Of a stretch of DNA of 28,155 bases, positions 754 through 27,584 are shown in pieces. Both the position numbers and the translations under genes were made by a program. Every line of letters starts with the position of its first letter. Position 1 is the first letter of the stretch. The notes under the pieces are model-generated. The model was not told the DNA's origin. It saw only the letters and a program-made list of their open reading frames with translations, and did not search any database. Source of the DNA: a virus (Duplodnaviria > Caudoviricetes); IMG/VR virus record IMGVR_UViG_3300042923_001013, positions 1-28,155 of that record. The stretch is one strand, 5' to 3'.

Positions 754-1005
754 ATGTGCATCCGCGTCCAGTACGTACCTCGCCACCTGCTCGAGGACCC
801 GTACGACGCCTCACACCAGGTCGTCACTCTGCCTGACACCCTGCGAGAGCAGTACGCCCTGCGAGCCCTCCGGACCGTACTTGGCGAACTCGGCATCCCC
901 CAGGCGCGCTTCGGTGCACGCTGCTGGTGCGGAGAGCAGATAGGCCTGCTCCCGCTCATCCCTCAGCAGCGAAGGAGTAACGAGGTGAGCAACCTTGGCG
1001 CGTAG
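754..1005 (+). CDS. Small hypothetical protein with CWCG motif
   Basis: ATG 754 follows GGGGGAG; 83 aa; the 3' end overlaps the integrase start. Confidence 0.65.
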   Translation: MCIRVQYVPRHLLEDPYDASHQVVTLPDTLREQYALRALRTVLGELGIPQARFGARCWCGEQIGLLPLIPQQRRSNEVSNLGA

Positions 1006-2302
1006 GGCTACCAACAACCCACGACAGCTCAAGTCCAAGTCATGCGGGTGCGAGCTGTGCATGGACGCCTTCCCGCCGGAACAGCACGGTGAGCGCCGGC
1101 GCCGCCGTGACTGCATCGGATCCTGGCAGGCCCGCTACCGGGACGCTGACGGGCAGCAGAAGGCCAAGAACTACCCGAAGAAGAAGGACGCTGACGCCTT
1201 CCTGGACAGGACCCGGGAGGCGGTCCGCTCCGGTACCTACCTTGACCCCAAGCGCGGCGAGGTCACCCTCTCCGCATGGTGGGCGGAATGGTGGCCGGGC
1301 CACGAGCCCGAGCGGCCGACCACCCGCAACCGCAAGCTGTCCTCCTGGACTTGCCACATCGAGCCCAAGTGGGGGAAGCGCAAGCTGGTCTCCATCCGTC
1401 ACACCGAGGTCCAGGCCTGGATGCGCACGGAGGTGAAGGGCCACGCCACGCAGATCAAGGTCCGCGAGCTGTTCCGCGCGCTGATGCGGGACGCGGTGGT
1501 GGACGAACGGATCCCGAAGAACCCGTTGGACGCCGTCACCATCACCGCCGCGGCCCCGACGAAGCACCCCGACGAACTGCGGCCCCCCACGGAGGAGCAG
1601 TACGCCGCGATCCGCGAGGCCATCCCCCTCTGGTACCAGCCTCTCGTCGACTTCGCGCACGAGACCGGGATGCGCTGGGGCGAGATCGTCGGCCTGCGCG
1701 CCTGCTACCTCGACCTCGAGGAGTGCGCCGCCGAGGTGCGGCACATCCTGGTGGACGACCGCGGGACCATCGTCCGCCAGCGGATGCCGAAGACCCTGGC
1801 CGGCTACCGCACCGTGCCTCTCACGGCCGCCGGGGTGGAGGCAGCGAAGCTGGCTCTGGAGCGGCTGCCCGCCTCGAGCACAGTGACTGACGTCCAAGCC
1901 GGCCTGTGCCCCGAGGAACTGGTGTTCCGTGGGCCGATGGCGGGCGAGGCCCGGCTCATGAAGGGCGAGCGGACCACGCTTGACGGCGTGCTGCGCGGCA
2001 ACAACTTCCGCCGGCGGATCTGGATTCCCGCGATCAAGGAAGTGGGATTGGCACGGCTCATCAAGGACCCGGACACGGGGCGCGAGGAGTACTGGCCTCG
2101 CTTCCACGACTACCGGCACGCATTGGCGAGCCGCCTGCACGCCCGCGGGGTGAGCGAGAAAGACGTCCAGCTCGTGCTTGGACAGGAGCGGGGCGGCCGG
2201 GTCACCTGGCTATACACGCACGGCACCGAGGGTGCGGCCGACCGGGTGCGCCAGGCGCTCGAGGGCGGCGGCGACGCTCGCCACCTGCGAGCCGTCTCGT
2301 GA
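995..2302 (+). CDS. int: Tyrosine recombinase/integrase
   Basis: Arm-binding WQARYRD motif, SAM-like core, catalytic motifs GMRWGE, PKT, HDYRH, LYTH; TTG start after GAGGTG; attP immediately downstream. Confidence 0.95.
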   Translation: MARRATNNPRQLKSKSCGCELCMDAFPPEQHGERRRRRDCIGSWQARYRDADGQQKAKNYPKKKDADAFLDRTREAVRSGTYLDPKRGEVTLSAWWAEWWPGHEPERPTTRNRKLSSWTCHIEPKWGKRKLVSIRHTEVQAWMRTEVKGHATQIKVRELFRALMRDAVVDERIPKNPLDAVTITAAAPTKHPDELRPPTEEQYAAIREAIPLWYQPLVDFAHETGMRWGEIVGLRACYLDLEECAAEVRHILVDDRGTIVRQRMPKTLAGYRTVPLTAAGVEAAKLALERLPASSTVTDVQAGLCPEELVFRGPMAGEARLMKGERTTLDGVLRGNNFRRRIWIPAIKEVGLARLIKDPDTGREEYWPRFHDYRHALASRLHARGVSEKDVQLVLGQERGGRVTWLYTHGTEGAADRVRQALEGGGDARHLRAVS

Positions 2303-24089: not shown

Positions 24090-24527
24090 TCACCAGGACC
24101 GGGACGCCTGCGGCATCGCTGCCCGTGAGGCCGCCGGCCGCTGCCGGTACCAGCGGGTGACGACCCGCTTCATCTCCGGGTCACGCATCGCCTCGACGCG
24201 GGCCATGACGATCTCCTGCCCAGGGTCCACGGTGACGATCCGGGCGCCGAGGCGCTTGTACTTGGCCATGGCCTTGGCGCTCGGCATGGTGTGGATCAGG
24301 TAGACGTCGACCGTGTCACGCAGCTCGAACGCCGCGTCCATCGCGGCATAGCGGGCGCGGTGGGCGACGCGGAGGATCGTCGGGTCCTGGTTCCACGCAG
24401 GGGCGCCAGGCCCAGCGAGGGCGCGGGTGATGAGGTCCAGGTCGATGACGATGTCACGCGCTGTGGCGTGCGACTGGATCCATGACGACTTGCCCGAGGC
24501 CGGCGGGCCGGTGATCACGTACAGCAC
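24090..24527 (-). CDS. Small P-loop NTPase/kinase-like (AAA_33-like) protein
   Basis: LYVITGPPASGKS Walker A; IVIDLD. Confidence 0.85.
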   Translation of the reverse strand: MLYVITGPPASGKSSWIQSHATARDIVIDLDLITRALAGPGAPAWNQDPTILRVAHRARYAAMDAAFELRDTVDVYLIHTMPSAKAMAKYKRLGARIVTVDPGQEIVMARVEAMRDPEMKRVVTRWYRQRPAASRAAMPQASRSW

Positions 24528-25031: not shown

Positions 25032-25313
25032 CTACTGCTCGCCGAGCAGCTCGTCCGGGTCGACGTTGCCGTTCTCGTCGATGATGCCGGTGTCCTTGAG
25101 AGCCTCGGACATCCGGAGGGCGTCGTAGTCGTCCTGTGACAGTCCCTTGCAGGCGTCGGGCCAGTCGGTGGCACTGGCCTGCGTACCGGAGGCAAGTGCC
25201 TTCTGGCAGTCGGTGGCGATCTCTTCCTCGGACTTGTCGCTGCTGCAGGCGGCGAGGCCTGTGACGGCTACGAGGGCGAGCAGGGCGGTGCATGCGGCGG
25301 TGCGGGTGTTCAT
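25032..25313 (-). CDS. Small lipoprotein
   Basis: Signal peptide with lipobox LAAC; acidic mature part with two further Cys. Confidence 0.85.
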   Translation of the reverse strand: MNTRTAACTALLALVAVTGLAACSSDKSEEEIATDCQKALASGTQASATDWPDACKGLSQDDYDALRMSEALKDTGIIDENGNVDPDELLGEQ

Positions 25314-25541: not shown

Positions 25542-26132
25542 CTACGCGATCCGGTGGCGTCGGTTGGTCTCTGACAGGTCGTAGATGATCAGTCCTCCGT
25601 CGGTCCGCTCGACCCGCACCCCCTGTTGGTTGTGTTGTTGTTGCAGGTCAACACCGCCCACAGGGGGCGCAGCAGGGGGCCGGGGGAGGGGCGGTAGGTC
25701 GTCCTTGTGTACGCCTACGCCCGTGCGGGTGCCGCAGCGTACGGCGCGGCGTACGCGGATGCCGAGGGCCTCGAGGAGTGCGCGGGTGACGTCCATGGAC
25801 AGGCCGCGGGCGTCGGCGAGGTCGGCGAGGAAGACGTGCGGGTCGGCAAGCTGGTGCATCGTCTGGGCCAAGGGCTCGCGGTCGTCCTGGGCCTGGTCCT
25901 CGTCGGCGGGGCCGCCGCGGCGCCGGGTGATCCACCGGCGGGCCCGCTGCCATCCGTGTGTGCCGAGGACGCCGGTGATGACGTAGGCGGTCTCGGGCAG
26001 GACGGCGACGATCCCCCACATGGCGCCCAGCGCGACGGCGGCCAGGATGGCGCGGGCGGTGCGGTCGCTCATCCCGTCTCGCTCCCCCGGGCCGTCGGCG
26101 GCCGCGGGCTCGGTCTCCTGCGGCACGCTCAT
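25542..26132 (-). CDS. Membrane protein with soluble C-terminal domain (possible HTH)
   Basis: ATGA-coupled start; 1-2 TM helices; HVFLADLA...TRALLEALGI.VR..VR...GVGVH. Confidence 0.75.
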   Translation of the reverse strand: MSVPQETEPAAADGPGERDGMSDRTARAILAAVALGAMWGIVAVLPETAYVITGVLGTHGWQRARRWITRRRGGPADEDQAQDDREPLAQTMHQLADPHVFLADLADARGLSMDVTRALLEALGIRVRRAVRCGTRTGVGVHKDDLPPLPRPPAAPPVGGVDLQQQHNQQGVRVERTDGGLIIYDLSETNRRHRIA

Positions 26133-26635
26133 CCGAATGCCGCCGTGAACCAGGCGCCGAGCAGGTTGACCGAGGAGCCGAGGGGGACGGCGGCGATGCC
26201 GGCCACGGTGCCGGACAGGGCCACGGAGACGCCCGAGAACGCGCCGGCCGCCAGCTTGCCGTTGGACACCTTCGGAGCCCACTTCCACAGGGCGATCAGC
26301 ACCATGGTCAGCAGGAACACGATGACGTAGCCGCCGGGTGTGAGGGCGAGCTGCTGGGCGCGGGTGACGTCGGGGGCGGTGCCGCCGACGCCCCAGACGA
26401 GGCCGATGTAGCCGGCCACGTTCGCGGCCCACACGGTGGCCCAGGTGGCCATGCCGAGGGCGGAGATCGAGCCGAGGGCGGCCAGGGCGGCGAGCATGCC
26501 GTACAGGTGGGCCAGGACGAAGGGGACGAGGGCGGCGGGCTGGCGCTTCTCCTTGAGGCACCAGCGCAGGACGAAGGTGAGGACGACGCCGACGCCGAGG
26601 GCGACTCCTCCGAGGTTGATGGCCATGTAGGGCAT
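26129..26635 (-). CDS. Multi-pass membrane protein
   Basis: MPYMAINLGG...; at least 4 hydrophobic segments; SD GGAG. Confidence 0.8.
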   Translation of the reverse strand: MPYMAINLGGVALGVGVVLTFVLRWCLKEKRQPAALVPFVLAHLYGMLAALAALGSISALGMATWATVWAANVAGYIGLVWGVGGTAPDVTRAQQLALTPGGYVIVFLLTMVLIALWKWAPKVSNGKLAAGAFSGVSVALSGTVAGIAAVPLGSSVNLLGAWFTAAFG

Positions 26636-26637
26636 GG

Positions 26638-26802
26638 TCAGTGGCTCCAGACGGTGGCGACGTAGGCCGCGGCGAGGGTGAGTACGGCGACGGTGCAGAT
26701 GGCGGGTGCGAGGTAGAGGCCGGGTGCGCGTCGGGGTGCGAGTGCGCGCAGCCCGAGTGCGGCGACGAGTGCGACGGTGGGCCAGACGAGTGCGGTGCCC
26801 AT
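26638..26802 (-). CDS. Small two-TM membrane protein
   Basis: TGATG-coupled to the upstream gene; 54 aa, hydrophobic. Confidence 0.7.
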   Translation of the reverse strand: MGTALVWPTVALVAALGLRALAPRRAPGLYLAPAICTVAVLTLAAAYVATVWSH

Positions 26803-27390
26803 CAGGCGGTCTCGGGCAGGAGCGGCTGGATGCGCTGCGCGCGCTTCTGGCCGATGCGCAGCTCGGTCTGCAGGCGGCGCAGGGATGCGCGCTGGCCGGT
26901 CTCGGCGAGTGCGCGGCGGTTGACCTGGAGTGCGGATGCGAGGAGTGCTGCATCCGCATCCGGGCCGGGCAGTTCGCGTACGACGGATGCGGGTGTGCGG
27001 GGCTCGGGTTGCGGTTGCGGTGCGGGTGCATCCGGGGCCTGAGCTGCGGCGGATGCGGTTGCGCTCTCCTGCGGGTGCGGGTGCGGCGCTGCATCCGCCG
27101 TGGTGGGCTCGGCGACCTCTACGGCCTGTTCGGCTGCGTGCTCGAAGTCGTCGGCGGGGCGCGGGGGTGTGAGGGCGGCTGCGGTCTGGATGCGGTGCAG
27201 CGTGTCGTGCACCTGGCGCATGAGTGCGCCGAATGCGATGAGTGCGGCGGACGGGGGCACGGCTGCGACGACGTACTCCATCGGTTGCGCCCCGTTGCCG
27301 ACGCCGAACACGTTGAGTGCGATGGAGCCGAGGGAGCCGACTGCGGCGAGGGCGTAGGCCCACTTGTCGATTGCGCCTCGCAGGGATGCG
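26704..27390 (+). repeat. Polar array of short (GNN)TGCG repeats embedded in coding sequence
   Basis: About 37 TGCG on the + strand by manual count, mostly GAGTGCG, GGATGCG, GGGTGCG, GGTTGCG, GGCTGCG. Confidence 0.8.
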
Positions 27391-27584
27391 CGCAGCACGA
27401 GCAGCTCGCCCGCGACGATGAACAGGTCGACGGTGGCGGGCCAGGCCCAGGCGCGGGCGCCGGTGAGGCCGTTGCTGCTGGCGATGTCGTGCAGGTGTTC
27501 GTAGGACAGCCAGAAGGCGGCGGCGGTGAGTGCGATGGTGACGGCCGCGGCGCCGGCGGCGAGGCCTGCGGTCGGGTTCTTCAC
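26802..27584 (-). CDS. DUF2637-like membrane protein (plasmid spread-protein-like) with FtsK-gamma-like C-terminal HTH
   Basis: AFWLSYEHL.D.A...G...AWAWPATVD, S.ALNV, AAVPP motifs; Pro/Ala linker; ASLRRLQTELRIGQKRAQRI. Confidence 0.8.
   Translation of the reverse strand: MKNPTAGLAAGAAAVTIALTAAAFWLSYEHLHDIASSNGLTGARAWAWPATVDLFIVAGELLVLRASLRGAIDKWAYALAAVGSLGSIALNVFGVGNGAQPMEYVVAAVPPSAALIAFGALMRQVHDTLHRIQTAAALTPPRPADDFEHAAEQAVEVAEPTTADAAPHPHPQESATASAAAQAPDAPAPQPQPEPRTPASVVRELPGPDADAALLASALQVNRRALAETGQRASLRRLQTELRIGQKRAQRIQPLLPETA

Follow-up and report, generated by a model that had tools for sequence, protein, structure and literature searches.

A motorless membrane gene cassette in a probable Streptomyces phage, headed by a DUF2637 gene whose in-gene word array co-varies with the protein tail

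The stretch of DNA analysed here (the window, 28,155 nucleotides) comes from a tailed phage, in which genes for portal, protease, capsid, terminase, endolysin and integrase were detected with Pfam and PHROG. The phage is likely to be temperate since an integrase gene is present, and the host is probably a Streptomyces, as named homologues reach 82% identity. A complete record of 38,202 nucleotides with terminal repeats, G001, is 99.98-99.99% identical to the window and adds about 10 kb that are absent from it. The packaging genes (HNH/terminase) of the window lie downstream of a cassette of membrane genes, and the features are as follows.

26802..27584, minus strand: DUF2637 (SpdB2-like) gene, 260 aa, with a four-TM domain, a Pro/Ala linker and a wingless helix-turn-helix (HTH) (Pfam, hydropathy, AlphaFold)
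27174..27548, minus strand: DUF2637 membrane domain, aa 13-137, four hydrophobic helices (Pfam, E=1.8e-15)
26964..27170, minus strand: Pro/Ala linker, aa 139-207, mostly disordered, where the word array is densest (AlphaFold, composition)
26820..26963, minus strand: three-helix HTH, aa 208-255, no beta wing, gamma-like recognition helix (AlphaFold, fold searches)
26704..27534, unstranded: array of CGCAYYC/GRRTGCG words, 24 in number and 29 when counted as the hexamer GCAYYC, likely bound by the protein encoded here (predicted)
26638..26802, minus strand: 54-aa two-TM protein, start overlapping the DUF2637 stop (hydropathy)
26129..26635, minus strand: 168-aa membrane protein, 4-5 TM (family F3; PHROG 16379), with a homologue in phage VWB (hydropathy, PHROG, profiles)
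25542..26132, minus strand: 196-aa F1 protein, N-terminal TM anchor and winged helix, no motor, homologue VWB gp26 (profiles)
25624..25653, unstranded: GCAGGTCA core near the 3' end of the F1 gene, with TGTTG/CAACA repeats on either side (sequence inspection)
995..2302, plus strand: integrase (PHROG 1, E=5.8e-48)

Two smaller genes on the minus strand lie nearby: a 93-aa lipoprotein-like gene at 25032-25313, with homologues at 2 other loci, sits between the cassette and the HNH gene, and a 145-aa P-loop (AAA_33) gene at 24090-24527 precedes the terminase genes.

The open reading frame at 26802-27584 is a real gene, with a GTG start preceded by GAGGAG and a third-position GC of 0.84. Pfam DUF2637 (PF10935) matches residues 13-137 of the product with 57.6 bits, above the cut-off of 22.8, and also 43 of 43 homologues. 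Hydropathy gives four TM segments at residues 8-26, 50-68, 78-96 and 104-122, the AlphaFold helices of the membrane part run over residues 4-37, 44-68, 74-94 and 101-138, and the linker has 15 prolines and 17 alanines among its 69 residues. A sequence-only reading of this DNA had seen about four TM segments and a Pro/Ala linker, which hydropathy and composition bear out, a C-terminal sequence ASLRRLQTELRIGQKRAQRI, which is found in this reading frame, and no motor domain; an FtsK/TraB motor is indeed absent from the gene, the window and G001, the last searched for a RecA-type ATPase motor with PF01580, a TraB-motor alignment and two local HMMs. It had also let its case depend on a C-terminus that models as a (winged) HTH. 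A three-helix HTH core is modelled with a pLDDT of 93-97, and a separate model of the tail and fold searches agree on an HTH, but there is no wing.

The GAGTGCG and GGATGCG words named in the same reading belong to a real local cluster, written here as GRRTGCG. The count for the whole window is barely over chance (51 matches, 39.6 expected), and 24 of these matches fall within 26704-27534, where 0.8 would be expected (P about 1e-26). All but one of the 24 (23/24) stand on the coding strand, as CGCAYYC, in all three frames, and the array extends past the gene into the next one (26638..26802), which holds 7 words. The words are written into synonymous codons: GCAYYC occurs 22 times in the gene, against 2.5 when synonymous codons are redrawn from phage genes, which is above all 100 draws, and the same test shows enrichment in all 13 loci that have this tail. 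In all ten tail groups the words are densest in the linker, and in the group of the present tail the density is 48.8 per kb there, 17.9 per kb in the next gene, in other frames, and 5.3 per kb in the 400 nt upstream of the gene, which is not an enrichment; the copies in this group are dispersed and not tandem. In the part coding for the TM domain the GCAYYC class reaches 21.4 per kb, against 1.4-7.1 in the nine other groups. Alanine before Leu, Ser, Pro or Phe in that part is written GCA in 68 of 108 cases in the present tail group and in 24 of 253 in the nine others, whose protein is 58-81% identical, so that the pressure acts on the DNA and not on the protein.

The word co-varies with the tail type among the relatives. 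Homologues of the DUF2637 gene make up 1688 of 8000 scored candidates. At least nine interchangeable tail types occur in the relatives, and tails other than the present one go with other words (GTGACC, TGACG, GCGTCC, GTTCCG, GAGCGC, CTCCA and GGACA), these having been picked on the same loci in which they were counted. A held-out set was made of the 80 best among 453 GTDB loci; at a threshold of 30 bits a tail type could be assigned to 58 of them and not to 22. The most enriched of the ten words was the predicted one in 44 of these 58 and failed to be so in 14; after removal of four near-copies of training genes the figure is 41 of 54, where chance would give about 1 in 10, and for loci with the present tail the word was correctly predicted in 9 of 10. 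The counts overstate the independence of the loci, because these are related. For most of the other tail groups the word lies mainly in the linker, and there the pairing could be due to a common origin of linker and tail; only some groups are strand-biased, and several showed no clear word in the loci scanned. One protein, P0268, shares linker and tail (75% identical) joined to a different membrane domain that has no Pfam match, and the tail module thus moves between membrane families.

The DUF2637 gene heads a four-gene membrane cassette without a motor, where three more membrane genes (54, 168 and 196 aa) follow with starts that overlap or abut. It is the last of these, at 25542-26132, and not the DUF2637 protein, that has the TraB-type winged helix. 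The core of F1 aligns with the C-terminus of TraB-type ATPases (hhalign 92.9%, E=3.6e-7), the two are each other's top outside matches in reciprocal HMM searches, and in the ESM Atlas the closest structure cluster with a name belongs to the FtsK family (TM 0.69). F1 is likely a TraB with its motor deleted, and we say only likely because this type of winged helix is also found in the C-terminus of DUF3631 replication proteins and the match of the N-terminus to TraB is weak (E=0.016). A SYWGGTCA core near the stop is found in 23 of 27 F1 genes against 2 of 26 F3 genes, and the GCAGGTCA-type core with its short inverted repeats is possibly a second, putative binding site.

Two arrangements alternate behind the DUF2637 gene of relatives: a TraB-like ATPase, or F3/F11 genes together with F1. 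Among 65 viral loci (those of 74 with at least 3.5 kb downstream) 22 have the motor only, 37 the cassette only, 6 neither and none both, and 71 GTDB loci (out of the best 80 of 453) divide into 35, 31, 5 and none in the same order. A search of whole records, covering 45 of 75 viral records, gave motors in 13, of which 11 had built the query, and no FtsK/TraB motor in the 21 records L001-L021. Packaging genes lie inside the flank in 27 of 39 cassette loci against 6 of 24 motor loci among viruses, and in 15 of 31 against 3 of 37 among the best 80 of 453 GTDB loci, a comparison that is biased by the length of the motor genes. The motorless form looks typical of phages. Nine loci (the viral L024, L025, L028, L033, L035 and L067, and L101, L102 and L105) have a TraB-like FtsK ATPase of 700-800 aa directly behind the DUF2637 gene, HNH/terminase genes nearby and CGAAAC or CTAGC-type repeats at the 3' end of the ATPase gene, and some tailed phages may keep the whole transfer module. 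In the literature searched there was no account of the motorless cassette or of the arrays; PMC3218068, PMC3583192, PMC9239103 and PMC9513070 add context only.

By its sequence the N-terminus belongs to DUF2637, a family of SpdB2-like plasmid spread proteins, and an SpdB2-like way of working is predicted. The nearest plasmid homologues are 58-68% identical across the TM domain, and of 3 small Streptomyces plasmids viewed, 2 have it two genes behind an FtsK/SpoIIIE gene. The 371-aa gene of pJV1 we take to be spdB2, from its position. The pJV1-type family has an HTH-like tail at its end, as the present protein has, one of its nine members is above the DUF2637 cut-off, and its profile finds phiC31 gp25 (2.7e-36), a pJV1-type homologue with a tail unlike the present one, and VWB gp24 (1.9e-7). 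The latter is DUF2637 at 123 bits and bridges the two families. Compared directly, the present subfamily and the pJV1-type family have collinear motifs, but the similarity is weak (hhalign E=0.006-0.012) and the HMM scores are no better than the best of 900 shuffles; a profile comparison with pIJ101 SpdB showed no similarity.

SpdB2 of pSVH1 has four TM helices, forms pores and is required for intramycelial spread (Thoma et al. 2015, PMC4447253), and it is reported to bind double-stranded DNA without sequence specificity (PMC4447253). Oligomerisation, peptidoglycan binding and the formation of pocks are further marks of SpdB2 spread proteins. The SpdB2 proteins of pSVH1 and of the pJV1/pSN22/pWTY27 types share with the DUF2637 protein the four TM helices together with a DNA-binding part, and their systems likewise form an operon of small membrane genes; the close plasmid homologues of the present gene adjoin traB. 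There are also differences. The N-terminal coiled coil of pSVH1 SpdB2 (aa 1-99, PMC4447253) is absent, as the first TM segment begins at aa 8, there is no traB beside the gene or elsewhere on the element, although a motor of this type accompanies the gene in 22 of 65 viral relatives and in 35 of 71 GTDB relatives (best 80 of 453 loci), and specific instead of non-specific binding is predicted. The comparison with pSVH1 SpdB2 follows its published description.

A cultured phage, VWB, shares tail, word and cassette. Its gp24 (AY320035) is likewise a DUF2637 gene, with the same tail (pairwise E=1e-5) and the same GCAYYC array, and homologues of F3 and F1 follow behind it (E=1.4e-30 and 1.6e-14); it differs in its length of 438 aa and in a TM domain from another DUF2637 subfamily. 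GCAYYC occurs 21 times in gp24 against 6.3 with redrawn codons, and reaches 34 per kb at this spot and 12 in the adjacent bin, whereas the 47 remaining kb bins have 0-7. The products gp24-gp26 are all annotated as hypothetical. The F3 match in gp25 (L093:17668-18918) is confined to the last ~165 aa, and the annotated start therefore appears to be too far upstream; the extension overlaps the GCAYYC-rich stretch. For plasmid pIJ101, PMC4170104 describes SpdA2 as binding a palindrome within its own coding region and as affecting plasmid stability, and gives spdB2 as reported to stabilise SLP2. By this description SpdA2 and its site sps are a similar case of a DNA-binding protein with its site in its own coding region and a role in stability, but SpdA2 is soluble and its site is one or two 12-bp palindromes, against two dozen polar heptamers here.

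The best reading of the locus is in our opinion a sequence-specific, cis-acting membrane tether derived from plasmid spread modules, with the binding predicted. The gene is packed with the word and the word changes with the tail, and the protein therefore likely docks on its own gene. We infer that the four-helix DUF2637 part would insert in the membrane and the C-terminal HTH bind the 24 CGCAYYC words in its own gene, loading in cis, so that the bound protein, probably oligomerising as SpdB2 does, would fix the phage DNA to the inner side of the cell membrane in the probable Streptomyces host. The F1 protein would be a second, TraB-type tether, in the slot where relatives keep a whole TraB motor. 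To this reading, in which the tail binds the words of its own gene and so ties phage DNA to the membrane, with F1 as second tether, we give a probability of roughly 60%. The purpose, judged by descent from a plasmid/AICE module, is most likely retention of an extrachromosomal copy and its spread within the mycelium, and for any pumping a motor would have to be supplied by the host or by a co-resident element.

The sequence-only reading had seen in the tail a helix like that of FtsK gamma, and its interpretation stands in part: the protein is a motorless membrane protein with an HTH, but not an FtsK gamma. The resemblance is real and weak. FtsK gamma is the closest match by sequence in fold searches of the tail (30-32% identity), the recognition helices are similar, and Pfam FtsK_gamma (PF09397) has matches at E<=1 in 23 of the 43 homologues aligned, the best with 1.1e-5, but the protein itself scores 12.5 bits (E=0.13), under the cut-off of 30.6. 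In FtsK gamma a beta-hairpin wing comes after the recognition helix, whereas neither model of the tail has a strand and the protein stops five residues past helix 3. FtsK gamma with KOPS and the TraB winged helix with clt/TRS likewise combine polar short repeats with an HTH on a membrane protein, but here ATPase and wing are lacking and the array is inside the gene. A true gamma domain that reads KOPS-like polar words across the whole phage genome is thus hardly credible, as the words are restricted to 0.83 kb and longer proteins sharing the tail amount to one match among 1013 candidates, which is not an FtsK; the missing wing and the local array largely refute it. It is also very unlikely that the array is a by-product of the short-repeat expansion that built the linker, co-inherited with a non-specific HTH. 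The density does peak in the linker, and in P0268 linker and tail travel as one block, but the word is also frequent in the conserved TM-coding part and, in other frames, in the next gene, and its copies are dispersed.

If the cassette were a functional route by which phage DNA crosses hyphal cross-walls, this would extend the tether reading, with the DUF2637 protein as an SpdB2-like pore, tails that hand over the DNA and a borrowed host or plasmid FtsK/TraB motor. SpdB2 pores are needed for intramycelial spread and the phage homologues have been proposed for the same (PMC4447253), and a full TraB occupies the same slot ahead of HNH/terminase genes in 6 of 24 viral motor loci. However, neither the complete record G001 nor any of L001-L021 contains a motor, deletion of TraB abolished the pocks of pSVH1 (PMC4447253), and the coiled coil of pSVH1 SpdB2 is missing, so we regard this as possible but doubtful. 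Regulation, where the protein, tethered to the membrane, would repress or obstruct its own operon or the read-through into the packaging genes, seems quite unlikely; the words do lie in a transcribed region just upstream of the HNH/terminase genes, and in one tail group the word is enriched also upstream of the gene (13.3 per kb), but the region upstream of the present gene is poor in words compared with the linker, an operator would need far fewer than two dozen asymmetric sites, and a separate divergent small gene stands upstream at 33 of 154 loci. Four membrane genes in an accessory slot, tails that vary fast and the fact that SpdB2 makes membranes permeable (PMC4447253) would fit exclusion or defence, with membrane proteins that block or kill on the entry of competing plasmids or phages and an HTH that senses DNA; we find this most improbable, as it is a gene of the element itself, and not a foreign one, that has the matching word, and the cassette descends from a transfer module.

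The family and its presence in actinophages were already known, and in 2015 the homologues in VWB and phiC31 were proposed to spread phage DNA through the mycelium (PMC4447253). New at this locus are the pair of CGCAYYC and tail, the match to VWB, the held-out test and the exclusivity of motor or F1. The strict alternation between a TraB motor and a motorless gene for a TM-winged-helix protein opens the 2015 suggestion to a test, and the tail-word pairs are a natural panel with direct predictions, CGCAYYC for the present tail. As a speculation that goes beyond the tether reading, and that we hold only tentatively, temperate Streptomyces phages could have domesticated a plasmid conjugation-and-spread module, cut the motor from TraB while retaining a pair of membrane tethers, each with an address code of its own written in its gene, which would hand prophage DNA to a borrowed FtsK/TraB motor between hyphal compartments without virions, the swappable HTH-word pairs serving as incompatibility codes.

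The label "excisionase" of PHROG 733 is misleading for the DUF2637 family. As an identity for the present protein it was rejected: the PHROG match covers aa 11-200, with the TM part, and a Xis/MerR-type HTH_17 is not found in the protein and is found in 2 of 43 homologues, both with another tail. The label likely comes from members with a Xis-like tail, and it is carried by the DUF2637 proteins of phages Dubu (NC_070828) and phiSASD1 (NC_014229). In pJV1, the gene after the SpdB2-like one (L083:1778-2221) matches PycTM, a membrane domain of Pycsar effectors (E=1.6e-14). The small divergent gene upstream of the cassette lies outside the window, at L001:4856-5166, and contains a perfect 28-bp palindrome (L001:5139-5166); its homologues, found at 33 of 154 loci by iterated search, also include VWB gp21.
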